Notes: generated from the letters alone by a model not told the origin. Positions 3,535 through 57,277 are shown, counted from the first letter of the stretch. The stretch is DNA of 64,000 bases from Patescibacteria group bacterium (GCA_041652555.1 JBAZHE010000001.1:66847-130846); one strand, 5' to 3'. Numbers and translations are program-made.

Positions 3535-4530
3535 TTAGATTATTTCCCAGCCGGTTTCTGTTTTAATAATACTTCCGTTTAATCGGAAGGCGGCGGCTTT
3601 TTTGTGGCCGCCGCCACCTAGTTTTTCGGCTAAGAGGGCGACGTTGATTTCGGGGAGTTTTGATCTTAAGCTTCCACGAACCACTCCTTTTTCTTCCTCT
3701 CTTAAAAATAAAGAGCCTTTTATTCCGTCTAAGTTGGTTATAATATCAGAGATAGCATCAAAGGCGCTATCTTCACCAAATTCTTTCTTTAGCTCAACAA
3801 CTTCCTCGTAAGTGAAAACTGAGCAAACTAAGTCGTATTTTTCATTGATGTATAGTTTTTCTAAAGCACGACCGATTATTTTCATAGCAGCGACTGATTT
3901 GCCTTCGTTGTTGCGCTTAATAATTTTGGGCATAGCCGCGCCGCGTAATAAAAGAGCTGAGGAAATTTTTACAGTTTCTTCGTTGACTGAACTGAAAAGC
4001 AAATTGCCGGTGTCAGTCATTATTCCGGCCAAAAGGCAATTGGCAGCTTTTTGCCCGATTTGAATATTATTGACAGTGAAAAAAAGATAAATAATTTCTG
4101 CGGCCGAAGAATGTTGGGGCAGGCGGATTTCCAGGTCGGAATAATTATCGGTTGGCGGGTGATGGTCGAATTCTAAAATAGTCTGATTTGATTTTTTTTG
4201 GACGATTTCATCAGCCAAACCGGTGCGCGTCAGAGCGCTACAATCAACTATAATAATTAAGTCAAAAGAAAAAAAATTAAATTTTTTTTTAGAGGTTATT
4301 TTTTTAAAATTCGGCAGAAAAGAAAAATGTTCCGGTGCTTGGTCGGCACAGAAAAGGTGGTAATTTTTACCAAGCTTATCTAGTAAGAGTGACAGAGCGC
4401 ACATTGAAGCTAGCCCGTCGCCGTCCGGCCGGATATGGGTGGCGACTAGGATGTTTTTCGCACTGCGAATTTTTTCTAGCGCTTGTTGAAATTTTTTAGT
4501 TAGGATTTCTTCGTTCATTTTTTGTGTCAT
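3535..4530 (-). CDS. nrnA: DHH/DHHA1 phosphoesterase (NrnA-like oligoribonuclease/pAp phosphatase)
   Basis: DGDGLAS, EFDHHPP and GGGGHKKAAAF motifs. An alternative start (MNEEIL, ATG complement ending at 4518) would sit outside the repeat element. Confidence 0.8.
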   Translation of the reverse strand: MTQKMNEEILTKKFQQALEKIRSAKNILVATHIRPDGDGLASMCALSLLLDKLGKNYHLFCADQAPEHFSFLPNFKKITSKKKFNFFSFDLIIIVDCSALTRTGLADEIVQKKSNQTILEFDHHPPTDNYSDLEIRLPQHSSAAEIIYLFFTVNNIQIGQKAANCLLAGIMTDTGNLLFSSVNEETVKISSALLLRGAAMPKIIKRNNEGKSVAAMKIIGRALEKLYINEKYDLVCSVFTYEEVVELKKEFGEDSAFDAISDIITNLDGIKGSLFLREEEKGVVRGSLRSKLPEINVALLAEKLGGGGHKKAAAFRLNGSIIKTETGWEII

Positions 4531-4596
4531 GCTGGCGAAGGCTGGTATCCAGTTTTACATAAGGACTATGGATCCCGGCCTTCGCCAGGATGACAC
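4524..4596. repeat. dRS3/NIME-like palindromic element, divergent copy (a)
   Basis: gtgtcatGCTGGCgaagGCTGGTatccag - 17 nt - ggatCCCGGCcttcGCCAGGatgacac. The left and right halves are mutually complementary. Confidence 0.7.
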
Positions 4597-4647
4597 CGTA
4601 GTTATATATTAAATGAATTATAAAGCATTTTTGGAAATTTGAAACTA

Positions 4648-4679
4648 TTGACAAAAGATAATTTAATATGTATTATAAT
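4648..4679 (+). promoter_or_regulatory. Sigma70-like promoter
   Basis: TTGACA (4648..4653), 17 nt, TATTAT, with TATAAT overlapping. Lies upstream of the 4740 ORF, which has an AAGGAG SD. Confidence 0.55.
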
Positions 4680-4739
4680 TATGGTTGCCAAATGAGTGTT
4701 TGGTAATTTTTGTTCATTTAATCAACAAGGAGTGAGCAC

Positions 4740-5084
4740 ATGTCTTTTTCTGGAGCAACTATCTTAGAAGGATCAGCCAATCGTACTGTCAATTTTTTTT
4801 ATGGGATTCGCGAAGTAAGCGAGGTTGGTAATGGTTTAACGATTAATCAATTCAAGGTATTAGCAAAAAAGGTATTGCTCAGTAATCATGCGGAAATCAA
4901 CGTGTTGATTGCAAAAGCTGAAAGAATATTTCCCAAAGAAATGGCTGGTTTCGATAATCTTTTATATATTCTTCATTCAGTGAAACGCAATTCGGTTGGT
5001 CTGTCCGGTAGCGATTATGAAAGACTTTTAAATAGGTCTTTCCGAAGGGCTGGTGCCAAACCGCACTTACCATTTTACAATTAA
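4740..5084 (+). CDS. Hypothetical protein
   Basis: 114-aa ORF with AAGGAG SD, own promoter and terminator. No motif recognised. Confidence 0.6.
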   Translation: MSFSGATILEGSANRTVNFFYGIREVSEVGNGLTINQFKVLAKKVLLSNHAEINVLIAKAERIFPKEMAGFDNLLYILHSVKRNSVGLSGSDYERLLNRSFRRAGAKPHLPFYN

Positions 5085-5097
5085 TTCTGTCTTATAG

Positions 5098-5127
5098 AGG
5101 TCGTCTCTCGTGCGGCGACCTTTTTTC
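5098..5127 (+). terminator. Rho-independent terminator
   Basis: aggtcgtc ... ggcgacct followed by tttttt. Confidence 0.7.
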
Positions 5128-5134
5128 ATGTCAA

Positions 5135-5163
5135 AAAATCACCTTTTTAAAAAAGGTGATTTT
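5135..5163 (-). terminator. Hairpin terminator at the end of rbfA
   Basis: aaaatcaccttttt / aaaaaggtgatttt palindrome, with A/T runs on both sides. Confidence 0.6.
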
Positions 5164-5545
5164 ATTTGTATTCTACTTCTTCCAGTTTGTCTATTTCTTC
5201 ATCTAGCATGGTTTCTATTTTTTTCATTTCTTCAAAGGCCTTATTCATAACGTTCACCTTTTTTTCTGTAGAGTCAAAATTCCATAGGAGCTTTGGTACT
5301 TTGCGAAAACGCATACGGTTTTTTAGTAACTTGGCGATATCAATAGAAGAAGTGCGCAGTTTTTCTAAAGCCGAACCAACGATATTGTCTGGTAAAACAG
5401 AGATATAAATTTTGGCTGTGGAAAAATTTGGATCACAGTTTACACTGGAAACAGTAATTAAACCGTCATAAAAATCAACCACTTCTTCTATGGCCAGGGC
5501 GATTTCTTTTCGTAGAGTTTCATTTAGGCGATCGATGTTCGGCAT
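5162..5545 (-). CDS. rbfA: Ribosome-binding factor A
   Basis: RbfA-like sequence (LRKEIALAIEE...AKIYISV...RFRKVPKL) immediately downstream of infB. Confidence 0.9.
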   Translation of the reverse strand: MPNIDRLNETLRKEIALAIEEVVDFYDGLITVSSVNCDPNFSTAKIYISVLPDNIVGSALEKLRTSSIDIAKLLKNRMRFRKVPKLLWNFDSTEKKVNVMNKAFEEMKKIETMLDEEIDKLEEVEYK

Positions 5546-9123: not shown

Positions 9124-9124
9124 T

Positions 9125-10094: not shown

Positions 10095-10103
10095 AAGCGA
10101 ATT

Positions 10104-22169: not shown

Positions 22170-22179
22170 CAGTTCAGAG

Positions 22180-22255
22180 TTCGAATTTCGAAGTGCGAGT
22201 TTCGAATTAAATTTATAAATTAGATAATTCGCACTTCGCACTTCGAAATTCGAAA
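22180..22255. repeat. Long hairpin in tRNA spacer 1 (TTCGAA-rich)
   Basis: ttcgaatttcgaagtgcga...tcgcacttcgaaattcgaa, with at least 19 contiguous complementary nt. Confidence 0.75.
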
Positions 22256-22264
22256 GTTGAAAGG

Positions 22265-22338
22265 GGCTGGGTAGCTCAGCTGGTTAGAGCACGGCACTCA
22301 TAACGCCGAGGTCGAGGGTTCAAGTCCCTCCCCCGCCA
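22265..22338 (+). tRNA. tRNA-Met (anticodon CAT; elongator-like, but Ile2 cannot be excluded)
   Basis: Manual cloverleaf: anticodon loop ctcataa, T-arm gaggg ttcaagt ccctc. One acceptor-stem mismatch. Confidence 0.8.
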
Positions 22339-22347
22339 CAATGAAAA

Positions 22348-22439
22348 GTTCGAATTACGAAATGCGAAGTTCGAATTGATTTTTTAAGAAATATTTAGTA
22401 GTATTATAATTCGCACTTCGAACTTTGTAATTCGAAATT
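22348..22439. repeat. Long hairpin in tRNA spacer 2, related to spacer 1
   Basis: agttcgaattacgaaatgcgaagttcgaatt ... aattcgcacttcgaactttgtaattcgaaatt. Confidence 0.7.
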
Positions 22440-22446
22440 TTAAATG

Positions 22447-33494: not shown

Positions 33495-33500
33495 ATTTTG

Positions 33501-33529
33501 TGTCATTCCTGCGGAGGCGGGAATCCAGC
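33501..33529. repeat. Solo half of the dRS3/NIME-like element, copy (b)
   Basis: gtgtcattcctgcggaggcgggaatccag, just after the rpsI stop. Confidence 0.7.
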
Positions 33530-33564
33530 CATTATTTTTTATCGTCTATTTCGTTTATATATTC

Positions 33565-33596
33565 AAAAAACGCATTTTCTCAAGGATGCGTTTTTT
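33565..33596. terminator. Hairpin terminator
   Basis: aaaaaacgcat ... atgcgtttttt. Confidence 0.75.
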
Positions 33597-33733
33597 GGTA
33601 TTTTTTTTTTACTCCATGCTATAATTGTTATTAATGAGAATATTTAAATATAACTCTTCTAGGTCGGGCTTGTTATTTAACAAGTGAATAGGTGAAATTA
33701 AAATATTTATTCACTAATAATTAAATTTTAAGC

Positions 33734-36122: not shown

Positions 36123-36127
36123 GAAAT

Positions 36128-36228
36128 AATTTTGAATTTTCAATTTTGAAATAAATCTAAATTTTATAATTTTAAAAATTAAGAAATTAGAAAATTATTT
36201 CAAAATTGAAAATTGAAAATTCAAAATT
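36128..36228. repeat. A/T-only long inverted repeat built from TTTTGAA/TTGAAAA heptamers
   Basis: aattttgaattttcaattttgaaataa ... ttatttcaaaattgaaaattgaaaattcaaaatt. The loop carries TATAAT. Confidence 0.75.
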
Positions 36229-36229
36229 A

Positions 36230-37844: not shown

Positions 37845-39335
37845 ATGATTTATGTTAATAAATTTAGAATAATTTGGATAATTGCTTTAACAGCCATGGT
37901 TTTTGTTTTGGCCTGGTTAAAAATCGTTCCGACCGGTAAAATTACCTATTTTAATAATAGCGACTTTATTAGTAATTTAACGCCAGTTGAGAGAATGAAT
38001 GTTGATAAAATTATTGGTGACCCTGTTTATTTTACTTTGCGTGTGCCTCGTCGTTTTGAGAGCGCTAAGTTGACTATAAAATTTAAAAATGAAAGTGCTT
38101 TGCCAATTATAGAAGCTGGGGTTTTGATTGATAAAAAAGTTTGGAACTATGATTTAAAGCCTTTGGACAATTCTATTTTGGATAATTTGATAGGTAAATG
38201 GAATTCTGTTCGCTCTGGAGATTTGCTTTTATTGCAGAGAGAGAAAAAGTTTAAAAGTGTAGAAGAATTTTTGAAAAATCCGCCAGTGAGTGATAAAATC
38301 GCTGCTTATAATTATTCTCTAGAACAAAATTTTTTATTACCAGATTATAAAACTTCAAAAGAAGAAATGACTTTGTGTCGTCCGCTTCAGGGTGCTTATC
38401 AATTTTATACATATATTAAGGATGAAGATTTGTCGTTTGATTTTGCTTTACAGGATTTGAATAAAAATGATGACGAAGATATAGTTGACGCTTTGGTTTA
38501 TTATAAGGATCAAGAAATATACAAAGAAACCTTACCAGATAATAATAGTAATAGTAGAAATTTAAAATTATTTTTAACCAATTTGCCAGAGGGAGTTTAT
38601 AAAATAAGTTTGCGCGCCAATAATGATATTGTGACGCGCACAATAACTACGTCACAATCAAAAATTACTTTTATAAATAAAGTCGCCTTGGCTGATACGC
38701 CCGAAGTTTCGTGCGGTCGAAATTTGTTTACCAATAGCCGAGTGGCGCAATTTCAAACAATTTTATCCAATAAGCTCGGACAAATTAAAATTACCCAGGC
38801 AATTAAATCCCCTCTAGAAAGAGGGGTGCATCAGTACTCTGAGGCGGGGTGTGTCGGCGTCTGCACACAGCAAGAAGTTAATTTGAACGAAACCTATAAA
38901 CTTTTTTCTACTGGATGCCAGAACAGGGCAGTGCCCTGTTCCTACGAGACCTTACCGTCATTTTCTGAAATTATTATGCCATCTGACGGGATAACTGTAA
39001 CTGGCGACGGTTTATTTTCTTTTTCCCTTGAACAATTTTTTAATCCGGAAATAAAAAAAGTTGACGAGAATTTTGATCCTGACCGAGAAGATGTAGATTT
39101 TATTATTGCTAAATATACACCACCAACACTCGATGGTGAATGGAAGATTGCCACCGCTGATTTTGATTTAACAAACGCTTATAAAGAATTTAATAAACAT
39201 AGTTTTTTGATTTCTATTCCAGGACTCCGCGCTGAAGATGGAACTTTGGATGGAGTAGAAGTTGGAGAGGTTAAAATTGAGCTATCTGGAGTAAGTTTGT
39301 TTGATAAAATATTTAAAATGATAAATGATAAATGA
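37845..39335 (+). CDS. Membrane-anchored hypothetical protein (496 aa)
   Basis: N-terminal TM segment and a long extracytoplasmic region. Carries the in-frame REP-like insert R3. Confidence 0.65.
   Translation: MIYVNKFRIIWIIALTAMVFVLAWLKIVPTGKITYFNNSDFISNLTPVERMNVDKIIGDPVYFTLRVPRRFESAKLTIKFKNESALPIIEAGVLIDKKVWNYDLKPLDNSILDNLIGKWNSVRSGDLLLLQREKKFKSVEEFLKNPPVSDKIAAYNYSLEQNFLLPDYKTSKEEMTLCRPLQGAYQFYTYIKDEDLSFDFALQDLNKNDDEDIVDALVYYKDQEIYKETLPDNNSNSRNLKLFLTNLPEGVYKISLRANNDIVTRTITTSQSKITFINKVALADTPEVSCGRNLFTNSRVAQFQTILSNKLGQIKITQAIKSPLERGVHQYSEAGCVGVCTQQEVNLNETYKLFSTGCQNRAVPCSYETLPSFSEIIMPSDGITVTGDGLFSFSLEQFFNPEIKKVDENFDPDREDVDFIIAKYTPPTLDGEWKIATADFDLTNAYKEFNKHSFLISIPGLRAEDGTLDGVEVGEVKIELSGVSLFDKIFKMINDK
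38806..38856 (+). repeat. REP-like element R3, in-frame inside the 37845 gene
   Basis: aatcccctctagaaagaggggtgcatcagtactctgaggcggggtgtgtcg. Translated as SPLERGVHQYSEAGCV. Confidence 0.8.
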
Positions 39336-39340
39336 TAAAT
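39316..39340. repeat. Tandem heptamer (AAATGAT)x3
   Basis: aaatgataaatgataaatgataaat. Spans the stop of the 37845 gene and the ATG of the 39325 ORF. Confidence 0.8.
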
Positions 39341-39525
39341 TAGGGAGTATATTTAAAGAATTATTTTATGCTTTAACTGTTTTCTTGGTGGTTTTAGCGG
39401 TTTTAGAGTTGCTTTTTTCTCGGATGGTGTTGGCTTATATTAATTTAAGCTATTTGTTGCTCGTCTGGCTGATAATTGGTATAATTTTATTAGTAATATC
39501 AAAGAAAAAGTTGTCATCCCCGTGA
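39325..39525 (+). CDS. Small two-TM membrane protein (hypothetical)
   Basis: 66-aa ORF with two hydrophobic helices. Its last codons run into repeat element (c). Confidence 0.4.
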   Translation: MINDKLGSIFKELFYALTVFLVVLAVLELLFSRMVLAYINLSYLLLVWLIIGIILLVISKKKLSSP

Positions 39526-39594
39526 AAACGGGGATCCAGAATTTTTTACAGCAACGCTCGAACACTGGATTCCCGCCTACGCGGGAATGACACA
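39512..39594. repeat. dRS3/NIME-like element, copy (c)
   Basis: tgtcatCCCCGtgaaaaCGGGGatccag - 27 nt - ctggatTCCCGCctacGCGGGAatgaca. Confidence 0.85.
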
Positions 39595-40124: not shown

Positions 40125-40203
40125 TTTTTACCTCCCTTATTTGATTGTTAAAGACCGTAAAGATACTATATTTATACCGTATTTTATTAACTTTGTCAAT
40201 ATT

Positions 40204-42171
40204 ATGTCAAAAAAAACGCTAAAAATACCCACTTTCGCTAAAGCTATGGCGGGCAAGACTAAAAAGAAGAGTGTTAATCAGGAGTTAACTGATGTTTTGT
40301 TAGCTTCTAAGAAGGTTTATAAGCCGTCTAAGAAGGTTGTGGCGGAGGCGGCGGTTAAAGACTGGGAAAAGGCTAGACGTGAGGCTGATAAAGATCCTTT
40401 GAAATATTGGGAAGAGGCAGCTCGCGATTTAGTTTGGTTTAAGCCATGGACTCAGGTTTTAGATAAATCACAAAAGCCGTTTTATAAATGGTTTATTGGT
40501 GGCAAAACAAATCTCGCCTATAATGCTGTTGACCGCTGGCTTAATACGCCGAAAGAAAATCAAGTAGCGATTATGTCTGAGGATGAAACCGGTCGCGCTC
40601 GTAAATTTACTTACAAAGAAATTTCTCGTGAAATTAATAAAACCGTTAATGCTTTAAAAAATATTGGTGTGAAAAAGGGCGACAGAGTGGCAATTTATAT
40701 GCCAAACATTCCAGAAATTGCTTTTGCGATGTTGGCTTGCGCAAAAATTGGTGCGATGCATTCTGTGGTTTATGCCGGTTATAGCGCCACCGCTTTAAAA
40801 GATAGAATTCAAGATGCTAGCGCTAAAGTTGTTTTTACTGCTGATGGTTCTTTGCGTCGCGGTAAGGTTATTAATTTGAAATCAGTTGTAGACGAAGCAG
40901 TTAAAGATTGTTCATCCGTAGAAAAAATAATTGTTGTTAAGAATAATAATCAAGAAGTAGCTTTTAATAGTAAAAAAGATATCTGGTATCACGATTTTAT
41001 CAAGGATCAATCAGATGAGGCTGTCTGCGAGGCGATGGATAGTGAGGATCCGGCTTTTGTTCTCTATACTTCTGGTACAACTTCTAAGCCAAAAGGCGTA
41101 GTGCACGTTCACGGTGGTTATCCAGTTGGAGTTTTGCGCACAATGAAATGGGTTTGGGACGTGAAAGAGACTGATATTTTTTGGTGTACGGCTGACCCTG
41201 GTTGGATTACCGGACATTCATATATTATATACGGACCATTGCTTGCTGGCGTAACTACTCTGATGTATGAAGGCACGCCGGATTTTCCAGAACAAGATCA
41301 TATTTGGAAATTAGTTGAAAAATATAAAATTACTATTCTTTATACCGCACCGACCTTGATTCGTGCGATGATGAGCATGGGCGACGAATTACCTGACAAA
41401 CATCTAATGGAAAGTTTGCGTCTTTTGGGCTCGGTTGGTGAGCCAATAAATCCTGAAGCTTGGCGCTGGTATTTTAAGCATATCGGCAAAGGACAGTGCC
41501 CAATTATGGATACTTGGTGGCAAACAGAAACAGGTTGCAATATGTTAACTCCTTTACCAAGCGCACCTTTAAAAGCTGGTTCAGCTACAAAACCATTCCC
41601 AGGAATTGAAGCCGATATCTACGGTATGAATGGCAAAAAAGTTCCTGTTGGCAAAGGCGGTTATTTAGTTATTAAAAATCCTTGGCCATCAATGATTCGC
41701 ACAGTTTTTAATGCCCCGGAAAGATATTTAAAAACTTACTGGAAACAAATTAAAGGAGTTTATTTCACCGGTGATATTGGTTTTAAGGATAAAGATGGTT
41801 ATTTCTTTATTCAAGGTCGTACTGATGATATGTTAAAAATTGCCGGACATAGAATTGGTACTGCCGAAGTTGAGTCAGCCTTCGTGGCCCATCCTTCAGT
41901 GGCTGAATGTGGTGTTATCGGCGTGCCTGATGCTATCAAAGGCGAAACCATTAAAGCTTTTTGTATTTTGAAAAAGGGGATTATCGGCAGTGATGAATTA
42001 AAAGCTGAATTAAAAATGCACGTCCGCAAAACTATCGGGCCGGTTGCAGTTATGAGCGGAATAGAATTTGTAGAAACCCTACCAAAAACCCGTTCCGGAA
42101 AAATAATGCGTCGCGTCTTAAAAGCTAAAGAATTGGGCTTGCCATTAGGAGATACCTCAGCCCTGATTTAA
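40204..42171 (+). CDS. acs: Acetyl-CoA synthetase (AMP-forming)
   Basis: YTSGTTSKPKG AMP-binding motif, WWQTETG, and C-terminal PKTRSGKIMRR with the regulatory Lys. ATG at 40204. Confidence 0.93.
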   Translation: MSKKTLKIPTFAKAMAGKTKKKSVNQELTDVLLASKKVYKPSKKVVAEAAVKDWEKARREADKDPLKYWEEAARDLVWFKPWTQVLDKSQKPFYKWFIGGKTNLAYNAVDRWLNTPKENQVAIMSEDETGRARKFTYKEISREINKTVNALKNIGVKKGDRVAIYMPNIPEIAFAMLACAKIGAMHSVVYAGYSATALKDRIQDASAKVVFTADGSLRRGKVINLKSVVDEAVKDCSSVEKIIVVKNNNQEVAFNSKKDIWYHDFIKDQSDEAVCEAMDSEDPAFVLYTSGTTSKPKGVVHVHGGYPVGVLRTMKWVWDVKETDIFWCTADPGWITGHSYIIYGPLLAGVTTLMYEGTPDFPEQDHIWKLVEKYKITILYTAPTLIRAMMSMGDELPDKHLMESLRLLGSVGEPINPEAWRWYFKHIGKGQCPIMDTWWQTETGCNMLTPLPSAPLKAGSATKPFPGIEADIYGMNGKKVPVGKGGYLVIKNPWPSMIRTVFNAPERYLKTYWKQIKGVYFTGDIGFKDKDGYFFIQGRTDDMLKIAGHRIGTAEVESAFVAHPSVAECGVIGVPDAIKGETIKAFCILKKGIIGSDELKAELKMHVRKTIGPVAVMSGIEFVETLPKTRSGKIMRRVLKAKELGLPLGDTSALI

Positions 42172-42180
42172 TAATGTATT

Positions 42181-42244
42181 AATCCCCTCTATGTGGGGGT
42201 GCCATAGTCCCTGTACTCAGGGCTGTGGCACCCAGGTGCAAGTG
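42181..42244 (+). repeat. REP-like hairpin R4, left flank of the RAYT pseudogene
   Basis: aatcccctctatgtgggggtgccatagtccctgtactcagggctgtggcaccc... Confidence 0.8.
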
Positions 42245-42258: not shown

Positions 42259-42804
42259 ATGCCACCACTAAGGATAAATATTGAAAACGAGAATTCTTTG
42301 CATTTTTTGACGCTGACTATTATTGAGTGGATAGATATTTTTACTAAGCCACAATATTTTGATATTATTATTGACAGTTTGAAATATTGTCGAGAAAATA
42401 AAGGCTTAAAATTATTTGAATTCGTTATTCTAGCTAATCATTTGCATTTAATTGTTAAAGCTAAAGAGGGCTATAAATTATCGCAAATAGTTAGCGATTT
42501 TAAAAAATACACTACGAGAGAAATTCTGAAAGCTTTGCAGGTGGACAATAGGAGATATATTTTAAATTTAATTAAAAATAGTTTTTCCAGAAAAAAAGAT
42601 TACGAAAATCAAATTTAGCAAAGAGAAAATTATCCAGAAATGATTAGTTCGGAAAAATTTTTGCAAGAAAAGATAAAATATATTCATAATAATCCAGTAA
42701 AGAAAAATTATGTTTGCTTGCCGGAGTATTGGTATTATTCTTCGGCTAGAAATGATATATTAAACGATAATAGTTTAATTGAGCTTGATAATCTTTGGGC
42801 GTAG
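42259..42804 (+). pseudogene. REP-associated tyrosine transposase (RAYT / IS200-like Y1 HUH transposase) with an in-frame TAG
   Basis: HUH motif NHLHLIV, FKKYTTREI, YIHNNPVKK...YWYYSSA. TAG at 42616..42618 sits where homologs have the W of xWQR. Confidence 0.8.
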
Positions 42805-42815: not shown

Positions 42816-42866
42816 GCAAATAGGGTGCCACAGCCTTGAGTACCGGGACTATGGCACCCCCAAGTA
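42816..42866 (-). repeat. REP-like hairpin R5, right flank of the RAYT pseudogene, inverted relative to R4
   Basis: The reverse complement reads tgggggtgccatagtcccggtactcaaggctgtggcaccc. Confidence 0.8.
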
Positions 42867-42920
42867 AAGATAATTTTAATATTAGCGTTACGAATTATGC
42901 GTTGCGCGTTATAAGAATAT

Positions 42921-45614
42921 ATGGAAATGTCACATCATTTAAGCGAAAAAAGGTTGGATAAGATTTTTAATCCGCAGACTATTGCGGTTATTGGTGCTTC
43001 TGATAAACAGGGCGGAGTTGGCAATGCTTTGATGAAAAATTTGATTGGTAATAATTATCAAGGGATTGTTTATCCGGTTAATCCTAATCGTGAAAGCGTG
43101 CAGGGGATTAAAGCTTATGTGAAGGTTTCGGATATTCCGGACAAGATTGATTTGGCAATTATTTGTACTCCGGCGGTGACTGTGCCGGCGATTGTTGAGG
43201 AGTGTGGTCAGGCTGGGGTTTCCGGTTTGGTTATTATTTCTTCTGGTTTTGATGAAATTGGCGAGAAGGGCAAAAAAATGAGTGAAGAAATTTTGTCTAT
43301 CGCTAACACTTATAATATGCGCGTAGTTGGGCCGAATTGCCTTGGCTTTATTCGTCCGTCAATCAATCTTAATGCTAGCTTTGCCAACAAAATGGCTTTG
43401 CCCGGGCATATTGCTTTTATTTCTCAATCAGGGGCGCTTTGTACTTCTATTCTTGACTGGTCAGTAAAAAATAATGTTGGTTTTTCTCATTTTGTTTCAA
43501 TTGGTTCTAATATTGATATTTCTTTTCATGATTTGATTGATTATTTCGGTGATGATCCAGAGACTGATAGTATTTTGATTTATATGGAGTCTTTGAAAGA
43601 GGCGCGAAAGTTTATGAGTGCGGCGCGGGCGTTTTCTCGTAAAAAACCAATTGTAGTTTTGAAAGTTGGACGCACTGAGGCTGGTTCTCGTGCAGCTAAG
43701 TCGCATACTGGAGCGATTACTGGTAATGATTCGGTTTATGATGCGGCCTTTGAACGTGCTGGCATTATTCGTGTTGATGGTGCTTTGGAACTTTTTCATG
43801 TAGCAAAAAGTTTGGCTATGCAAAAACGCCCACTTGATAATCGTGTGGCGGTAATTACTAATGCTGGTGGTCCTGGTGTTATTGCGGCTGATCGTTTGGC
43901 CTTAAAAGGTGGGCGTTTAGCAGAGCTGTCACATAAGACAGTTGAAGCTTTAAAAAATATTTTGCCGGCATCCGCTTCCACTGTTAATCCAGTTGATATT
44001 TTGGGTGATGCTGATTCTTTGCGTTATCGTCAGGCCGTGGAATTATGCTTAGAAGACTCTGGAGTTGATGCAGCTTTGATAATTTTGACACCGCAAGAAA
44101 TGACTAGCCCGACTGATGTAGCGCGGCAAATTGTTTCGGTCCAAAACAAAAAAGGTAAAATGATTTTTGCTTCTTGGATGGGTGGCGACGATGTAGCTGA
44201 AGGGCGGGTGATTTTGGAGCAAGGAAATATTCCAATATATAGAACGCCAGAAGAGGCGGTTGATATTTTTATGTATGTTGATAGTTACCGCAAACGTTTG
44301 GAATTTTTGAAAGAAACTCCAGGGTCTATTCCACATGCTTTTAAACCAAAAACTGAGGCAAATAAAAAATTAATTGAAAAAGTTGTTGCTTCTGGGCGAA
44401 CGGTTTTGACTGAAATTGAAGCTAAAGAAATGATTGCTAATTACGGAATTCCAGTAGCAAAAAATGGTGTCGCCAATTCGGCTACCGAGGCTGGAGAGAT
44501 TGCTGAAAAAACAGGCTTCCCAGTAGTGATGAAAATTCTTTCGCCTGATATTTTACACAAGACTGACATTGGCGGTGTAAAATTAAATATTAATTCTAAA
44601 GCCGAAGCAGAAAAGGCTTACAAAGAAATAATAGCGGGCGCGAAAAAGGGCGCACCTAAGGCAAAAATCGATGGCGTATTTATTGAGGTAATGACCAAGA
44701 AGCGCTACGAGCTTTTGATTGGTTGTAAGAAGGATGAGGTTTTTGGCCCGGCGATTGTTTTTGGTATGGGTGGTGTGGCCGTGGAAGTTTTTCGTGATAC
44801 AGCGGTTGGTTTGCCACCGTTGAATATGTCTCTGGCTTTAAAAATGATTCAAGAAACAAAAATTTATAAATTATTAAAAGGTTATCGCGGAATGCCTGGA
44901 GTTGATATTCCCGCAATTCAATTTTTGCTTTATAAATTTGCTTATTTGGTAAGTGATTTTCCGGAGATAAAAGAATTAGATATTAATCCTTTTGCGGTTG
45001 ATGAAAAGGGTGGTGTGGTTTTGGATGCTAAAGTTATTTTGGATGAAAAAGTTTTAGGCGTAAAACATAAACCTTATTCACATCTGGTAATTTCTCCTTA
45101 TCCTCGCGAGTATGAGAAGAAGATTGTTCTAGAAAATAAGAAAAATATTTTAATTCGTCCGATTCGTCCAGAAGATGAAGATTTAGAAATGGAGATGATA
45201 AATAATTTTTCTGCTACCACGATGCGTGATAGGTTTTTAGGTAAAGTTAAAAAAGTTAATTTGGAAATGTTGCGTGGTTTTACGCAAATAGATTATGATC
45301 GTGAAATTGCTTTGGTTGCAGAAACAGAGGAACGCAAAAAGAAAAAATTTGTTGGTGTTGTGCGTTTGGCTATTGACCCATACAATGAATCCGCCCTGTT
45401 AACAATCGCTCTAGTTGACTCCTGGCAAGAAATGACTTTAGGCAGTGAAATGATTGATTATATGTTAGACATTGCCCGCGCTCGAGGCGTGAAAAAAGTT
45501 TGGATGGAATTTTTTCCAACTAATAAAAGAATCATAAAAATCCTAACCAAACGCAATTTTACAATGAAAGAAAAGGGGAGTATTATGGTTGGAGAGTTGG
45601 AATTAGAAGACTAA
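42921..45614 (+). CDS. Pat-type protein lysine acetyltransferase (ADP-forming acyl-CoA synthetase-like domains fused to C-terminal GNAT)
   Basis: 897 aa: CoA-binding N-terminus (IAVIGASDK), ATP-grasp middle, GNAT-like C-terminus (IRPIRPEDE...VGVVRL...). Confidence 0.85.
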   Translation: MEMSHHLSEKRLDKIFNPQTIAVIGASDKQGGVGNALMKNLIGNNYQGIVYPVNPNRESVQGIKAYVKVSDIPDKIDLAIICTPAVTVPAIVEECGQAGVSGLVIISSGFDEIGEKGKKMSEEILSIANTYNMRVVGPNCLGFIRPSINLNASFANKMALPGHIAFISQSGALCTSILDWSVKNNVGFSHFVSIGSNIDISFHDLIDYFGDDPETDSILIYMESLKEARKFMSAARAFSRKKPIVVLKVGRTEAGSRAAKSHTGAITGNDSVYDAAFERAGIIRVDGALELFHVAKSLAMQKRPLDNRVAVITNAGGPGVIAADRLALKGGRLAELSHKTVEALKNILPASASTVNPVDILGDADSLRYRQAVELCLEDSGVDAALIILTPQEMTSPTDVARQIVSVQNKKGKMIFASWMGGDDVAEGRVILEQGNIPIYRTPEEAVDIFMYVDSYRKRLEFLKETPGSIPHAFKPKTEANKKLIEKVVASGRTVLTEIEAKEMIANYGIPVAKNGVANSATEAGEIAEKTGFPVVMKILSPDILHKTDIGGVKLNINSKAEAEKAYKEIIAGAKKGAPKAKIDGVFIEVMTKKRYELLIGCKKDEVFGPAIVFGMGGVAVEVFRDTAVGLPPLNMSLALKMIQETKIYKLLKGYRGMPGVDIPAIQFLLYKFAYLVSDFPEIKELDINPFAVDEKGGVVLDAKVILDEKVLGVKHKPYSHLVISPYPREYEKKIVLENKKNILIRPIRPEDEDLEMEMINNFSATTMRDRFLGKVKKVNLEMLRGFTQIDYDREIALVAETEERKKKKFVGVVRLAIDPYNESALLTIALVDSWQEMTLGSEMIDYMLDIARARGVKKVWMEFFPTNKRIIKILTKRNFTMKEKGSIMVGELELED

Positions 45615-45616
45615 TT

Positions 45617-45691
45617 TGTCATTCCCGTAAAAACGGGAATCTAGGATTCTGCGTGATAAAGCTGGATTCCCGCCTTCGTGGGAATGACACA
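45617..45691. repeat. dRS3/NIME-like element, copy (d)
   Basis: tgtcatTCCCGtaaaaaCGGGAatctag - 19 nt - ctggatTCCCGCcttcGTGGGAatgaca. Ends 6 nt before the murJ ATG. Confidence 0.85.
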
Positions 45692-47293: not shown

Positions 47294-47477
47294 AATCTAG
47301 TCTGGGAAATTGATATAGTTTTACAGAGTTTATATAATTATATTGTTGTTTGTTCATTTCTAAAGAAAGGAGATTATTGGTTTTATATGAACAAACGTAT
47401 TGTTCTTTTTTTGTTTCCCTGTATTTTAAAACAGGTAAAAATTTGTTCTTTCAATCATTCTTAATAGGAGGAAAATT

Positions 47478-48122
47478 TTGAAGAATCTTGTATTAGTATG
47501 CCTCATTGTAATCACCGCCATTTATTTTAGCAGTTGTAATCGTTCCGACATTTCACCTGTAAGCACTTCAACAATTGAACCCAGCACAACCGCCGGTATA
47601 GGGGATTATAATTCTTGTCCATGGAATTGGAACATGCCTTTCATCGGAAGTGCTTATGTTACCTGCGGCTATGGTTGTGGTTATCATACAGGCAACATAT
47701 ACTATTCCATCGATCTTTCAGGTGGAGGAGCGGCAAGCGGTGAACCTGTTAAAGCGTCTGCTTCCGGATATGTGCAATATGCAGATTGGGATCCTAATGG
47801 TAATTGGGGGTATGGAAATCAGGTAATAGTGGAAGCTGGCCCAACTGGACAACCAAATGGGAACCGATATCTTTACAGAGTTGCTCATTTAAGCAGTATT
47901 TCAGTGCAAGCTGGATGGTGGGTTGAAAAAGGAACAGTGTTGGGTTATGTAGGCTCTACTGGAAATTCCACCGGTGCTCATATTCATTTTGAAATAAGAA
48001 GAGGTAGCTATGCCGGTTATGGTGGCATATATGGAGATAGCTTTCCTCCTGATTATGATACGGGTATAGATGGATATGACGGTTGCGACGATTATTGTCA
48101 GATATCTTCGGAATTTCAATGA
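47478..48122 (+). CDS. M23 family metallopeptidase lipoprotein
   Basis: TTG start after an AGGAGG SD, lipobox-like FSSC. HTGNIYYSID and GNSTGAHIHFE match the M23 HxxxD/HxH motifs. Confidence 0.85.
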   Translation: MKNLVLVCLIVITAIYFSSCNRSDISPVSTSTIEPSTTAGIGDYNSCPWNWNMPFIGSAYVTCGYGCGYHTGNIYYSIDLSGGGAASGEPVKASASGYVQYADWDPNGNWGYGNQVIVEAGPTGQPNGNRYLYRVAHLSSISVQAGWWVEKGTVLGYVGSTGNSTGAHIHFEIRRGSYAGYGGIYGDSFPPDYDTGIDGYDGCDDYCQISSEFQ

Positions 48123-48212
48123 TTTTTCGGGAGGAGAAATTTATATTCTCCTCCCAAATTTATCAATTAAGTAATTAATATATTTACGTTAGATAATTAA
48201 ATTAAAAATTAT

Positions 48213-48833
48213 ATGACAACAAACAAAAAATTTTCTAATGGCTTATTTTTCTTTTTAGCTCTTTTAACGCTAATTTCTTGCAGTTTATTAAATAGCGAAA
48301 AAACACAAAAAATGGAAAATAATTCGGAATTATCTGAAAATAATGGCAATAATTTACTTGATTATAAAAACGCAGAATATGATTTTTCTTTTAAATATCC
48401 GAAAAATTTACAAATAAAACTTGATAAAGATAACGTAGATGAATTTAGCCCTGACGAATATTGGAGAACAACTTTCGAATCTAACAATTTAAAAACAGAT
48501 AAAAGCAAAGAAGCTTTTGAAAATGTAATCTCTGGTTATAGAGCAAGCATAGACATTGATCCGAAAACAAAAATTAAAGATTTTGAAGAATTAAAAATGT
48601 TGAGCAAATTAGGATCAGGAGGAACGCCAGTTGAAAGAGAAGAATATATTAGTAAAAATGGAGTAGATTTTATAATCCAGTATCATCAAAACGATAAAAA
48701 CAAAAATGTAAGCAGAACCGTTTTTGCCTTGTTTAATGGTTTATTTTTTAGAATGAATGTTTATGGTGAATACTCAGAAAAAGACAATGTTGATAATTTT
48801 ATTAGTGATATGATAAGTAGTTTTTCTGTTTAA
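48213..48833 (+). CDS. Lipoprotein, unknown function (paralog 1)
   Basis: Lipobox LISCS. 206 aa, collinear with the next gene. Confidence 0.65.
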   Translation: MTTNKKFSNGLFFFLALLTLISCSLLNSEKTQKMENNSELSENNGNNLLDYKNAEYDFSFKYPKNLQIKLDKDNVDEFSPDEYWRTTFESNNLKTDKSKEAFENVISGYRASIDIDPKTKIKDFEELKMLSKLGSGGTPVEREEYISKNGVDFIIQYHQNDKNKNVSRTVFALFNGLFFRMNVYGEYSEKDNVDNFISDMISSFSV

Positions 48834-48859
48834 GATTGATAAGTTTAGTGTAAAATTTT

Positions 48860-49480
48860 ATGAAAAAAATTAAAAAGTTTTTTCCAGGTTTGTTATTTTT
48901 GCTATTTTTATTATCCGCTTGCAGTAATAATTCAGTTAAAAAAAATCTCAAGAAAGAATTAAACGATAAACAAGAACCGCAAGAAATAGCCTCTTCGTCA
49001 GAAAATTATTCAAAAGAGAATGATTACGAAATTTATAAAAACGAGAAATACGGCTTGAGTTTTTTCTATCCAAATTATTTGGAAATTATTTTAGACGAGG
49101 AAGAGAATGTTCCAACTAATCATCTTTGGCGTTTGATGGTGAATAGTATTTCAAACAAGGCAAGTAGTAGTAACGTTGGTTTAATTTCTAATTTTTCAAT
49201 GGATATAAACTATCCGGCCACTGCAAAAAATTTTGAAGAATTAAAATACCTAGATAGTTTGGGTTGCGGTTCTGATGCCGTTAAAGAAGGCGAAGAAGAT
49301 AAAATTTTACCCGATCAAGAATTTTTTACTCAGATTTTTAAAAAGCCTGGAGATAAAGTTTTTATAAGAGTATCAGCTTTATATGAAGGCGCTTTTGTTT
49401 TCTTTAATTTCTATGGGTCTTATTCTGAAAAAGAAAAAGTCAAAGAAGAAGCTTATAAAATAATAGAAAGTTTTAAATAA
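48860..49480 (+). CDS. Lipoprotein, unknown function (paralog 2)
   Basis: Lipobox LSACS. 206 aa. Shares the Y.N..Y.(F/L)SF.YP, F(E/D)ELK and Y(G)(E/S)YSEK(D/E) blocks with 48213. Confidence 0.65.
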   Translation: MKKIKKFFPGLLFLLFLLSACSNNSVKKNLKKELNDKQEPQEIASSSENYSKENDYEIYKNEKYGLSFFYPNYLEIILDEEENVPTNHLWRLMVNSISNKASSSNVGLISNFSMDINYPATAKNFEELKYLDSLGCGSDAVKEGEEDKILPDQEFFTQIFKKPGDKVFIRVSALYEGAFVFFNFYGSYSEKEKVKEEAYKIIESFK

Positions 49481-49591
49481 AAGTATCAAAATGAAATTTA
49501 AAGACAAACTGCTAGTGTCATAATAGGCGGTTTTTTTTGTCGGTTGACCTTTGTGAAAAAAGGCCGTAATATGTAGATATAGTGCTAATAT

Positions 49592-49667
49592 AACACACCC
49601 TGGCCTAAGTACAGGCCACCCCCGAGATTTCGGGGTTCAGAAACCCTCTTTTTAGAGGGGAGTTAAT
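49592..49667 (-). repeat. REP-like element R6 (long variant with an extra hairpin), intergenic
   Basis: The reverse complement reads attaactcccctctaaaaagagggtttctgaaccccgaaatctcgggggtggcctgtacttaggccagggtgtgt. Confidence 0.75.
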
Positions 49668-49674
49668 ATTTTGT

Positions 49675-51459: not shown

Positions 51460-51480
51460 TTTAATTTAATCATTTATTAT

Positions 51481-51579: not shown

Positions 51580-51580
51580 T

Positions 51581-53308: not shown

Positions 53309-53389
53309 TGTCATCCCCGCGAAGGCGGGAATCTAGTAAGTTTACAAAGTGCTCGCACTCTGGATTCCCGCTTTCGCGGGAATGACACA
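53309..53389. repeat. dRS3/NIME-like element, copy (e)
   Basis: tgtcatCCCCGCgaagGCGGGAatctag - 27 nt - ctggatTCCCGCtttcGCGGGAatgaca. Ends 8 nt before the rnhA ATG. Confidence 0.85.
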
Positions 53390-53397
53390 CGTGAGTT

Positions 53398-53823: not shown

Positions 53824-53850
53824 AAAATCATCTCCTGAGGAGGGTATTTA

Positions 53851-53880
53851 AAAACAACGACTTTTAGGTCGTTGTTTTTT
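53851..53880. terminator. Bidirectional hairpin terminator
   Basis: aaaacaacgac ttttag gtcgttgtttttt. Confidence 0.8.
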
Positions 53881-53887
53881 CGTTTTT

Positions 53888-54838
53888 TTATTCAGCGTTT
53901 AATTTATATTTTTCAATATTCCCATCCGCTATTTTTTGTAATAATCTTATTTCTTCTTTGCCGGCTTCGCTTTTAAATAGATGTTTGAAGCGGGCTTGGG
54001 GTTTTAGGTATTCTTCTACGCTGATTTTTTCTTTTATTTTTGAAGCCTTAATAAGTTGGCCGTTTTCAAATTCTAAAAGGGGATAGAGTCCTGTTTGTGC
54101 GGCTAATTTACCAAGGCTCATTGCTGAATCAGTGGCAATGCCCCAGCCGGGAACGCAAGGTGCCATAATTTGGATATATGACGGTCCGCCTAGTTCTAGA
54201 GCGCGTTTTACTTTACGCGTAATATCTTCCGGATAGCCGGCGGTTGATTGAGCGATATATTTTAAGCCATGTGCTTGCGCGATAGCAATCATATCTTTTT
54301 TTCTTTGGGCTGAACCGATTGATTCGGCTCCGGCTGGTGTGGTAGCGGTTGAAGCACCTGGTTGAGTGGCACCTGAGGCTTGATAGCCGGTGTTGGAATA
54401 AATTTCTGTGTCATAGCAGATATAAAGAAAGTCATCACCGCGTTCCCAGGCGCCGGAAATGAGTCCAATCCCGATATCGAAAGTCGCGCCATCACCACCT
54501 TGGGCTATAACATTTATTTTTTCGGGAATTTGGCAAGTGCCGGATTTTTTATTACCAGAACATTTCTTTTTGTAATCAAGAGCCGCTCTAATACCCGAAG
54601 CCAATGATGAGGAATTTTCAAAAATGGAATGGATCCAAGGAATTTTCCAAGCTGATTCCGGATAAGGCGTAGTCGTCACTTCTAAACAGCCGGTGGCATT
54701 AGTAATAATAGTGTTTGGCCCAAAGCCACGCGAAGCGGACATAGCAGCAATCATCTGTCCACAGCCAGCGCAAGCTCTGTGTCCGGGAGCGATTAAAACA
54801 TCGCCGAGTTTTGGTTTTATAAGATTATCTGTTTTCAT
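53888..54838 (-). CDS. porB: 2-oxoacid (pyruvate):ferredoxin oxidoreductase, beta subunit (TPP-binding)
   Basis: GHRACAGCG and GDGATFDIG motifs. Confidence 0.9.
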   Translation of the reverse strand: MKTDNLIKPKLGDVLIAPGHRACAGCGQMIAAMSASRGFGPNTIITNATGCLEVTTTPYPESAWKIPWIHSIFENSSSLASGIRAALDYKKKCSGNKKSGTCQIPEKINVIAQGGDGATFDIGIGLISGAWERGDDFLYICYDTEIYSNTGYQASGATQPGASTATTPAGAESIGSAQRKKDMIAIAQAHGLKYIAQSTAGYPEDITRKVKRALELGGPSYIQIMAPCVPGWGIATDSAMSLGKLAAQTGLYPLLEFENGQLIKASKIKEKISVEEYLKPQARFKHLFKSEAGKEEIRLLQKIADGNIEKYKLNAE

Positions 54839-54846
54839 AAATTTTA

Positions 54847-56034
54847 TTAATTACAAACGTGGAAATGATTTTTTCCACCAGCATCTTCACCGGTTTCGGT
54901 TTGGTCGCATTTTATATTTTTATTATAAGTATTACAATTGCATTTATCTCCAGGATAACATTCATATAAAATATTTAGATTAGCATCTTTAAAAGTCGTA
55001 TATATTTTTTCTATAGTTTCTATATCTTCTTCTTTTTTGGAAGACATAATACCTCTTATTGGTGTAACCATATCAATGCAAGTTCCGTTTTTATGCCCTA
55101 AAGAGGAATGGTTGACTGTTGGTGGCCAAGCTTCTGTTATTTCTAATTTTATATCACCAATGTTATTATGAGCTTCTAATAATTTTTGATAAAAAGAATT
55201 TGCAACTTGGCAACTTTTTTGCGGGTATTTACAGGAGAAATTAGAAAGTAATCCAGTTATAGTTGTTGGTTCTTCACAGGCCATACAGCTTATTAAGTAA
55301 TCCGTGCAACCAGCTGGTAGTGGCGCGCAACAGCAGATAGCATCATCTTTTTTACCATCTTCAGAACATACGTCATTAATATTTTTCCATCCATCGCCGG
55401 CAGTAGCGCAAGTCTTGTCGAAGTTAGAGGATTTTGTTGTTGTTTTGGCTATATAGTCACTGTCTGTTAATGTTGTCCATTTACAAAGATGATTACTAGC
55501 ATTTTTCGCTGTTTTAACATTTGGTTTTTGAATTTTTGTTACGTTTAATTCTGTTAGTGCCGGGTTTATTTGTTGCAAGATCAGCCAGGAGGCCATTACT
55601 AAGACCAACCCTGAAAGAGAGGCGAAAATTATTTCTTTGGCTTCACCGATGGATGAGGCGTTACCGCCGGCTAAAATCCAGCGGAAGCCACCGACCATCA
55701 ACATTATGGCCGCCAATATTCCGACAATGCCAACCGCGTAATTGTAAATAGCTTTAACATAATCGGCGATTGGTTTGGTGTCGCCGGTATTAAAAGTTAC
55801 CACGCCCTCTTTTCCAAGGCCTGGAATCGGCACTTGCATTGTATAAGTAATCGGTTCGTTTTTAGCCGCATAAGCCATTTCCGGTGCACTCAAAGAAAGT
55901 CCCAGACTGAAAGCCTGCACCATCGCGATAACCGCGAAAGAGTAAGCAAAGAAGCGAGGGAAAGAAAAAAACTTTTTGTGCTTTTTTTTCTTTTTTAGAA
56001 AAGGAAAGATTTTTTTAAGTTTAAATTTTAACAT
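54847..56034 (-). CDS. Fusion protein: TrbC/VirB2-like pilin-type N-terminal domain, Cys-rich linker, and a LAS-type (M15-like) zinc peptidase motif set
   Basis: Two TM helices flank GGNASSIGEAK...QINPAL (pilin-like). The C-terminus has HKNGTCID (Hx6D) and HFH (HxH). Confidence 0.65.
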   Translation of the reverse strand: MLKFKLKKIFPFLKKKKKHKKFFSFPRFFAYSFAVIAMVQAFSLGLSLSAPEMAYAAKNEPITYTMQVPIPGLGKEGVVTFNTGDTKPIADYVKAIYNYAVGIVGILAAIMLMVGGFRWILAGGNASSIGEAKEIIFASLSGLVLVMASWLILQQINPALTELNVTKIQKPNVKTAKNASNHLCKWTTLTDSDYIAKTTTKSSNFDKTCATAGDGWKNINDVCSEDGKKDDAICCCAPLPAGCTDYLISCMACEEPTTITGLLSNFSCKYPQKSCQVANSFYQKLLEAHNNIGDIKLEITEAWPPTVNHSSLGHKNGTCIDMVTPIRGIMSSKKEEDIETIEKIYTTFKDANLNILYECYPGDKCNCNTYNKNIKCDQTETGEDAGGKNHFHVCN

Positions 56035-56038
56035 AAAC

Positions 56039-57187
56039 CTATTTTATTATTTTTCTTAAATTTTCTTTAGTAATATCTTTTCCTCCTAAACCGACAACTA
56101 CGCCGTTAATGATTGCGGTAGTTTTTCCATAAAGAGCGGATTTTACTTCAGTCTCTAATATTCCGCCAAGACCCAGGGAAATAGATTTTTCTAAAACAAT
56201 TATTTTTTTGGCATTAGTTTTTTTGATAACAGCCAAAATTTCTTCGGCCGGAAATGGTCTAAATGTTCTTAATTTTAAAACTCCTGTTTTATTTTTGAAA
56301 ACGCCGGATTTTTTATTTTCTTCATCAATAGTTTCTTTTATAGTTCCAATTACCGAGCCTAAAGAAATAACAACAGTCTTTGCTTTAGTTGGGCCGTAAT
56401 ATTCGACTAGGCCATTATCATAACTTGAAATATTTTTTTCTTGCGGATTAAATATTTTTTGTAATTTTATCCATTCTGATTTTATTAATTCTTTAGAATC
56501 TAGAATTTTTTGATTAAGCTCTAGGCGCATTTCTTGATAGTGAGTAGGTGTGACAAGTGTGCCGAGCGAGCGCGGGTTAGCCGGATCAAGATAAGTTCCG
56601 TTCTTTGGCTTATAGTCAGGCAAGAATTTTTTAATATTTTTTTCTTCAGGAATAGAAACTTCTTCGTAGGAATGTGTTAAAACAAAACCATCAACATTTA
56701 CAAAAGCCGGAACGGAAATTTTTTCGGCGATTTTGTAAGCTAGTAAGTGTTGAAAAACCGCTTCTTGATGATTCTCGGCAAAAAAAGACAACCAGCCGGC
56801 ATCGCGAACAGACATAATGTCTTGCTGGTCATTCCAAATATTTATCGGCGCGCCAATCGCGCGGTTAGCACAAGTGATAACAATCGGCAATTGCATTCCA
56901 GCGATATTATAGATAACCTCGGTCATTAATAATAATCCTTGAGAGCTAGTAGAAGTGTAGGTGCGGACGCCAGAAGCGGAAGCACCCAAAACAATAGAGG
57001 CGGCGGCAAATTCGCTTTCAGCGCGTAATAATTCATAATCAGCAATTCCTTCAGCTTTGAAACGCGCCAAATCTTCCACAATATGAGTTTGTGGCGTAAT
57101 CGGATAAGCGGAAATAACAGCCGGGCGGATATTTTTTATAGTTAAGGCAATAGCACGACTGCCTTCTAATATTTGAGGTTTAGACAT
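56039..57187 (-). CDS. porA: 2-oxoacid (pyruvate):ferredoxin oxidoreductase, alpha subunit
   Basis: MSKPQILEGSRAIA...YPITPQT. The start is set at 57187 because the 30-codon ORF-track extension is a read-through of repeat (f). Confidence 0.9.
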   Translation of the reverse strand: MSKPQILEGSRAIALTIKNIRPAVISAYPITPQTHIVEDLARFKAEGIADYELLRAESEFAAASIVLGASASGVRTYTSTSSQGLLLMTEVIYNIAGMQLPIVITCANRAIGAPINIWNDQQDIMSVRDAGWLSFFAENHQEAVFQHLLAYKIAEKISVPAFVNVDGFVLTHSYEEVSIPEEKNIKKFLPDYKPKNGTYLDPANPRSLGTLVTPTHYQEMRLELNQKILDSKELIKSEWIKLQKIFNPQEKNISSYDNGLVEYYGPTKAKTVVISLGSVIGTIKETIDEENKKSGVFKNKTGVLKLRTFRPFPAEEILAVIKKTNAKKIIVLEKSISLGLGGILETEVKSALYGKTTAIINGVVVGLGGKDITKENLRKIIK

Positions 57188-57198
57188 ATAAGAATAGG

Positions 57199-57277
57199 TG
57201 TCATCCCCGCGAAGGCAGGGATCCAGAAATTTGTTTAGTACTTGCACTCTGGATTCCCGCCTTCGCGGGGATGACAA
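57199..57277. repeat. dRS3/NIME-like element, copy (f), inside the por operon
   Basis: tgtcatCCCCGCgaagGCAGGGatccag - 24 nt - ctggatTCCCGCcttcGCGGGGatgaca. Confidence 0.85.

Follow-up and report, generated by a model that had tools for sequence, protein, structure and literature searches.

Inverted doublets of the dRS3-containing NTS/SRM hairpin repeat in the intergenic spacers of a Patescibacteria genome

The GIY-YIG nuclease SsnA, a single-domain protein of 94 amino acids, binds a 28-nt motif named NTS (CGTCATTCCCGCGMAVGCGGGAATCYRG) only when the motif is presented as single-stranded DNA (ssDNA), and cuts a few nucleotides upstream of it (Chenal et al., Nat Commun 2025, PMC11893778). NTS contains the dRS3 repeat, and the GTC on the 5' side of its palindrome and the C on the 3' side are reported to be critical for both cleavage and binding; in N. 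meningitidis SsnA/NTS reduces transformation, and a degenerate form, the Ssn-related motif (SRM), is spread across phyla, where it usually flanks ssn genes (PMC11893778). Here we describe elements built from this motif in a stretch of 64,000 nucleotides, called the window throughout, from a Patescibacteria group bacterium (GCA_041652555.1 JBAZHE010000001.1:66847-130846). The window holds five inverted doublets of about 73-81 bp, together with a solo half and a degenerate one; these elements are inserted copies of a known cross-phylum hairpin repeat family, the dRS3-containing NTS/SRM family, in a new host. The recently defined NTS/SRM-Ssn repeat family is thereby extended to the candidate phyla radiation (CPR), where it takes the form of compact doublets resembling miniature inverted-repeat transposable elements (MITEs).

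The repeat was identified through a full-text literature search with the half-site sequence, which led to the description of NTS by Chenal et al. (PMC11893778). Each doublet follows one plan, namely TGTCAT, a stem, a 4-nt loop, the returning stem and ATC(C/T)AG, then an AT-rich spacer of 16-25 nt and an inverted half that ends in ATGACA. This arrangement of two mutually inverted hairpin halves had been proposed in an earlier note made from the sequence alone, and it can be read directly at the five loci claimed there. A covariance model (CM) built from the 11 halves and run unfiltered on both strands of the whole window recovered exactly those 11 halves, at 41-49 bits and E-values of 1e-8 to 6e-11, and its sole further match was a weak one at 3502-3532 on the minus strand (16.5 bits, E 0.054). 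The note's list of copies was complete, in that all seven items lie where it had placed them and the CM finds no others; only the right ends needed correction, having been drawn 1-2 nt too long for a core that runs TGTCAT...ATGACA. A chance origin of the elements is excluded by pattern counts far above the expectation from dinucleotide-preserving shuffles, TCCC-N8-GGGA occurring 4 times in the window against 0.35 expected and GGGRATGACA, with at most one mismatch, 15 times against 3.85 expected.

Compared with the 28-nt NTS of Neisseria, the halves of the window differ at 1-7 positions, the closest being the right half of the doublet at 53309 (R53309), whose sole mismatch is at position 1. The published SRM pattern, HGTCWYN(0-2)YYVSBRHN(0-5)WNVSBRGN(0-2)RNCYNB, is matched by 8 of the 11 halves against 0.05 expected in shuffles, and T1 G2 T3 C4 A5 T6 and C25 are invariant in all 11, which includes the critical GTC and the C after the palindrome. 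The strict dRS3 sequence (ATTCCC-N8-GGGAAT) is kept in only 4 of the 11 halves, with TCCC-N8-GGGA exact in 4, and the other halves carry paired stem variants (CCCC/GGGG, GCTGG/CCAGG). The comparison with dRS3 and NIME drawn in the note was correct and can be refined, each half being an NTS/SRM motif that contains dRS3. The pairing itself is well supported: in the alignment of the 11 halves, 95.5% of the cells of the 8-bp stem are paired, three of the eight stem pairs change on both sides (UA/CG, CG/GC, CG/UA), and the observed covariation score was reached by none of 500 shuffles, which bears out the compensatory variants that had been pointed to. As single strands, whole elements are predicted to fold into long hairpins of -17 to -32 kcal/mol (z -4.7 to -11).

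A search of the window with Rfam at gathering thresholds returned three tRNAs only. With E-value thresholds the doublets match RF02625 (WsnRNA46) at 58.4, 41, 35 and 24 bits, all under its gathering score of 65.3, the best and likewise sub-threshold match being the doublet between porD and porA; they also match RF02748 (FtrB) at 37 bits, below its gathering score of 66. FtrB is an expressed small RNA (sRNA) of Francisella, and its Northern probe contains NTS.

The link to Ssn proteins comes from loci in other taxa. At 5-6 of 9 loci that had been found via the repeat, a Ssn-like GIY-YIG gene is preceded by a forward half and followed by an inverted one. As a check on this ascertainment, 35 viral-contig loci were chosen by Ssn protein homology alone and then scanned with the window-derived CM, which gave matches in 25 of the 35; at least 14 are bracketed on both sides, the matches typically lying within about 120 nt, forward on the upstream and inverted on the downstream side. 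The doublets of the window are this same bracket of left (L) and right (R) halves, with the gene replaced by 16-25 nt. Motif identity, a hairpin with compensatory changes and the bracketing of ssn genes elsewhere, to which is added a near-identical copy at an unrelated locus (described below), are observed directly, and we consider it probable that the elements are non-autonomous NTS/SRM doublets, that is, ssn-less miniature derivatives of NTS-ssn-NTS units that are moved via a Ssn-type nuclease.

The mechanism that we propose starts from the structure of a doublet, a forward NTS hairpin followed, across the spacer, by an inverted NTS. With R the reverse complement of L, a forward NTS open to cleavage stands at the 5' end of both strands, and either strand, when single, can fold into a long hairpin. 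A Ssn-type GIY-YIG nuclease, encoded elsewhere in the genome, would bind this hairpin and, if Ssn acts here as it does in Neisseria, would nick both strands about 3 nt outside TGTCAT, with copying or movement presumably proceeding through ssDNA intermediates. The doublets would then stand to NTS-ssn-NTS units as MITEs stand to insertion sequences (IS) or REPINs to RAYTs (REP-associated tyrosine transposases). Once transcribed, an element would form a stable stem shortly before the following gene, and any change in expression that this may bring would be a side effect.

Comparison with a syntenic relative (contigs L001/L002, GCA_030154545.1), in which 21.6 kb of synteny covers rpoA through the por operon, bears on mobility. 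Protein identity to the relative is 83% for MurJ, 74% for RecJ, 70% for an acs-like protein and 68% for a 496-aa protein, and the CM has no match in the relative over the 21.6 kb. Five sites can be compared, the sixth, at nrnA, lying outside the region compared, and all five are empty in the relative. The doublet at 45617..45689 separates the acs-like/GNAT gene, which stops at 45614, from murJ, whose ATG is at 45698, two genes that are 1 nt apart in the relative, and the doublet at 53309..53387 directly follows the recJ stop (53308), 10 nt before the rnhA ATG (53398), where the relative has recJ and rnhA 8 nt apart. The doublet at 57199..57276 sits inside the por operon, 12 nt past the porD stop and 11 nt before the porA ATG (57187-57185), and the relative has an unrelated AT-rich sequence as its porD-porA spacer. 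The doublet at 39512..39592 (L-half 39512-39540, with a loop of the GTGAAAAC type, and R-half 39564-39592) is placed between convergent 3' ends, and a TGA in the loop of its L-half serves as the stop codon of a conserved 66-aa membrane open reading frame (ORF) at 39325-39525, whose counterpart in the relative ends on its own stop codon. The solo half, a forward NTS half on the plus strand at 33501..33529 (CM 44.2 bits), begins 6 nt past the rpsI stop, in a stretch of about 47 nt that the relative lacks downstream of rpsI. The remaining copies lie at nrnA: the doublet at 4525..4595 (L-half 4525-4553, 43.5 bits; R-half 4567-4595, 43.1 bits; 13-nt spacer), which has the GCTGGC/GCCAGG stem variant and is 6 nt from an alternative nrnA ATG (4518-4516, minus strand), and the degenerate half at 3502..3532, on the minus strand just past the nrnA stop codon. 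The MITE-like presence/absence at orthologous intergenic regions that the earlier note had proposed looking for is found, and the elements were inserted into intergenic spacers of this Patescibacteria lineage after its split from the syntenic relative. Doublets were gained in a gene-dense genome of about 37% GC, in some cases between two genes that a spacer of 1-8 nt separates in the relative.

A single metagenome scan, with a spacer signature common to the doublets at 39512, 53309 and 57199, gave two matches only, one on an unrelated contig of 61% GC and the other in an AT-rich contig family (L244-L248, L254, L255). In this family, the doublet at L245:9918-9996 is 95% identical to the doublet at 53309..53387, spacer included, and has unrelated flanks. 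L245 probably comes from the same metagenome-assembled genome (MAG) or population as the window, judging from protein accessions 862 apart (MFA5248602.1 and MFA5247740.1, the latter, encoded on a 136-kb contig and annotated 'MAG: Patescibacteria group bacterium', being 100% identical to the window MurJ), from a tetranucleotide correlation of 0.974 (0.94-0.97 within the window, 0.949 for L001) and from a second repeat family common to both.

Related copies are widespread. Among GTDB genomes, doublets with a spacer of 15-30 nt are present in at least 120 stretches; the genomes, which include three Patescibacteria MAGs, belong to Proteobacteria, Nitrospirota, Dehalococcoidia, Planctomycetota, Gemmatimonadota, Elusimicrobia and other groups. 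More than 120 predicted viral contigs (L003-L122; 41-71% GC) carry the NTS half-site. There it often stands alone, as a hairpin immediately before a ribosome-binding site and start codon, and such contigs also have ssn genes with NTS halves on both sides. The doublets of Candidatus Hatepunaea meridiana (L129, L143, L158, L192) have an inverted symmetry that reaches into the flanks (cccattttGTCAT...ATGACaaaatggg), which suggests that in that lineage either the element ends are longer or the target is palindromic. Other loci found with the repeat include NIME-like arrays with a core of about 55 nt between inverted halves, which we take to be Neisseria RS elements.

Several points weigh against the reading of the doublets as miniatures moved via a Ssn-type nuclease. 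No target-site duplication or direct repeat flanks any of the five doublets, the autonomous partner with the same ends (L-ssn-R units) is seen in other taxa only, and we know of no experimental demonstration of transposition by Ssn. At 68-83% amino acid identity to the relative, the empty sites reflect gain or loss over a long time and not recent activity, and the start-codon bias discussed below is unaccounted for by the miniature-derivative model. The IS-like nature of NTS-ssn-NTS has itself been raised only as a hypothesis (PMC11893778). Finally, no GIY-YIG gene was found in the window by regular expression or jackhmmer, and the sole GIY-YIG protein tied to this population is UPF0213-like. 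This protein, P0121 (Pfam PF01541), is encoded by an 88-aa gene that starts 4 nt downstream of the L245 doublet; it matches UPF0213 proteins (1ywl) at 3e-15, where NTS-bracketed Ssn proteins reach 0.004, and it is 33% identical to one NTS-bracketed Ssn protein. Close homologues of P0121 are widespread in Patescibacteria. Three CPR loci with homologues at 79-83% identity have no NTS within 12-20 kb and 14 viral-contig loci with homologues at 49-64% identity have none nearby, so that NTS accompanies the P0121 family at 0 of 17 loci against 25 of 35 for ssn (Fisher p = 4e-7). The candidacy of P0121 as the cognate Ssn is weakened accordingly; as there is no link between its family and NTS, the doublet beside its gene may simply be another that happens to lie next to a start codon. 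A separate small GIY-YIG gene lies directly downstream of rpsI in a Magasanikbacteria-type contig (L250/L251, 9863-10000); the corresponding position in the window (33495-33733) is the site of the solo NTS half.

The placement of the doublets relative to start codons bears on a possible role in RNA. On a simple map of the window with 62 genes, 87% coding and a median spacer of 89 nt, four of the five doublets end 6-11 nt from a start codon (nrnA, at its alternative ATG, 6 nt; murJ 8 nt; rnhA 10 nt; porA 11 nt), where a uniform intergenic distribution would put 8.4% within 11 nt (p ~2e-4). Both copies in L245 are start-proximal too, and placements in L169b and L207b are similar. The flanking genes lack a Shine-Dalgarno (SD)-like sequence upstream whether or not an element is present, and related repeats are transcribed in Wolbachia (WsnRNA46) and in Francisella (FtrB, by Northern blot). 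These observations would fit a role as intercistronic or 5'-untranslated hairpins, or as sRNAs, that set the stability, processing or translation of the gene 6-11 nt downstream. Such a role is nonetheless rather unlikely: the relative has the same genes without the elements, deletion of FtrB gave no phenotype, and two of the four start-proximal cases, murJ and rnhA, were forced by original spacers of 1-8 nt, nrnA and porA, like glyA in L245, being the unforced ones. In other phyla doublets are not enriched near starts (9 of 109 in the high-GC set, where 9.6 would be expected), and the low-GC set from outside this population adds essentially nothing to the start-distance test. On the cross-phylum counts, the family as a whole shows no tendency to abut start codons; the abutment that the earlier note had described holds for this genome, where the bias is real, and is lineage-specific. 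It is conceivable, if quite unlikely, that doublets were inserted or retained 4-11 nt upstream of the starts of SD-less genes and were co-opted as portable mRNA modules, whose stable stem would uncouple, process or protect the downstream cistron; a minimal genome would then have recruited a selfish Ssn-type repeat into gene expression.

Other readings concern how the elements arose and what they do to DNA. An inverted doublet that folds as a long hairpin has the architecture of a REPIN, and the window encodes a RAYT homologue at 42259-42804 with a Y1 transposase domain (PF01797) that scores 108.8 bits against NF047646 (cut-off 80) when an in-frame TAG at 42616 is read through. That the doublets are REPINs mobilised by this protein is still very improbable, given that TAG, the lack of a GTAG/GTGG REP head in the window elements, and about 2 Mb of NTS-bearing loci that contain no homologue of the window RAYT as against 10 Ssn-like genes; the gene is flanked by a different 62-nt inverted repeat (of the GGGTGCCAYAGYCC type, not NTS), on account of which we reject it as mobiliser, and this other repeat forms its own pair in L245 beside the NTS doublet. 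GC-rich stems between genes of an AT-rich genome might likewise be taken for intrinsic terminators, or the elements for promoters, a highly improbable reading, given that three copies lie inside probable operons and that genome-wide counts of consensus calls equal the shuffled expectation; the absence of a T-run after the stem in the direction of transcription, and of any call overlapping a copy, leads us to reject both. The elements might, by analogy with what is proposed for Neisseria, be recombination or integration sites, or marks at which Ssn cuts incoming ssDNA, and so influence which genes are gained or lost, or natural transformation. ComEC is encoded in the window; as CPR bacteria depend on ComEC to take up DNA, a Ssn/NTS system among them would be of interest if this were true. 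The lowering of transformation in N. meningitidis by SsnA/NTS (PMC11893778) points the same way, as does the position of two doublets, that at 39512 bordering a lineage-specific segment of 3.3 kb (AMP-forming Acs and RAYT) and that at 45617 abutting a lineage-specific GNAT extension of the acs-like gene. The reading is improbable on the following evidence: the window has no GIY-YIG nuclease gene, neither border of another lineage-specific segment (47294-49674) carries an element, and no integrase, IS or prophage adjoins any copy. Nothing in the window shows that phages or IS integrate at these elements, the role that the earlier note had cited for dRS3 in Neisseria. The acs-like gene between the doublets at 39512 and 45617 is a normal orthologue, 70% identical to that of the relative, like its neighbours, which rules out replacement of the intervening segment by horizontal gene transfer.

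The elements also leave marks in gene calls, as spurious N-terminal extensions and as false start or stop codons in porA, nrnA and the 66-aa ORF. The gene identities (NrnA-like, acs-like/GNAT, MurJ, RecJ, RNase H, PorA, PorC and ComEC) are borne out by NCBIfam and Pfam matches in the window, which has 33-40% GC and a GC skew that is positive throughout, and PorD is an 88-aa 2x[4Fe-4S] ORF at 57289-57555 on the minus strand. The ORF called as porA, of 412 aa with a TTG start, translates the doublet at 57199 as LSSPRRRESR...LDPCLRGDD ahead of the true MSKPQI start, so that gene calls and translation agree with the note both on an element between porD and porA and on a spurious porA extension; similarly, the start of nrnA as placed by the ORF-caller is the terminal CAT of the TGTCAT of the doublet at 4525. 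Recurrent peptide strings in MAG annotations, such as SSPRRRESR and LDPCLRGDD, are explained by these elements.

Some features near the elements deserve record in their own right. The RAYT-like gene has its TAG (42616-42618) where homologues would have Trp, and its 62-nt inverted repeats (42172-42233 and 42823-42884) are each a hairpin of the GGGTGCCAYAGYCC...GGGACTATGGCACCC type, a pair of which occurs without a gene at L245:6020-6140. The segment 39595-42920, absent from L001, starts right after the doublet at 39512 and encodes a 150-aa membrane ORF, an AMP-forming acetyl-CoA synthetase (40141-42171) and the RAYT; the segment 47294-49674, also absent from L001, encodes an M23 peptidase and two PsbP_2-like ORFs. 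The ADP-forming acs-like protein (42921-45614, 897 aa), whose stop codon precedes the doublet at 45617, carries a C-terminal GNAT/Pat-like acetyltransferase extension of about 190 aa that is lacking from the 710-aa orthologue of the relative, the common part being 70% identical. Between porB (53888-54838) and porA lies a 395-aa ORF (54847-56034) with a T4SS_pilin domain (PF18895), an arrangement within the por gene cluster that is the same in the relative. Two further inverted repeats are distinct from NTS: a separate family with TTCGAA/GTGCGA units in the spacers among tRNA-Arg, tRNA-Met and tRNA-Lys (22173-22446; arms of 29-39 nt, 76-84% complementary), and an AT-rich, near-perfect palindrome between prfA and the comEC start (36127-36229; arms AATTTTGAATTTTCAATTTTGAA..., 46 nt, with a 2-nt gap).

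Set beside known systems, the doublets share with the dRS3/NIME elements of Neisseria (Parkhill 2000; Bentley 2007, PMC1797815) the ATTCCC-N8-GGGAAT core, in its strict form in only 4 of the 11 halves, and the arrangement of inverted units around a short variable segment. They differ in that this segment is 16-25 nt long, where NIMEs have inverted dRS3 units around an RS segment of 50-150 bp, often in arrays, and in being single units, in another phylum, with no associated IS or prophage. With WsnRNA46 of Wolbachia and FtrB of Francisella they have in common the termini and the long-hairpin plan (model consensus GGUGUCAUCC...GGAUCCAGA and CUGGAUUCC...GGAUGACACC), but not the sequence of the inner stem or the length of the spacer, and the latter two are annotated as sRNAs. 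Like REPINs and MITEs they are short, non-autonomous, hairpin-forming inverted doublets, dispersed between genes and variably present, for which a gene-carrying counterpart with the same ends exists; the enzyme family associated with them is, however, GIY-YIG and not HUH-Y1 as in the REPIN/RAYT system, and the RAYT of the window has repeats of its own. The features of a MITE that they display are terminal inverted repeats, small size, a lack of coding capacity and presence/absence variation, without the target-site duplication. NTS/SRM remains the closest match. Patescibacteria are not mentioned as a host in its description (PMC11893778), the copies of the window are almost all tight inverted doublets, and the window has no ssn gene of the cd10448 GIY-YIG type, yet in both settings the unit is a 28-nt oriented hairpin, TGTCAT(T/C)CCCGCGAAGGCGGGAATC(C/T)AG here and CGTCATTCCCGCGMAVGCGGGAATCYRG there, multi-copy and intergenic, and matches to the CM derived from the window bracket ssn genes in other bacteria.

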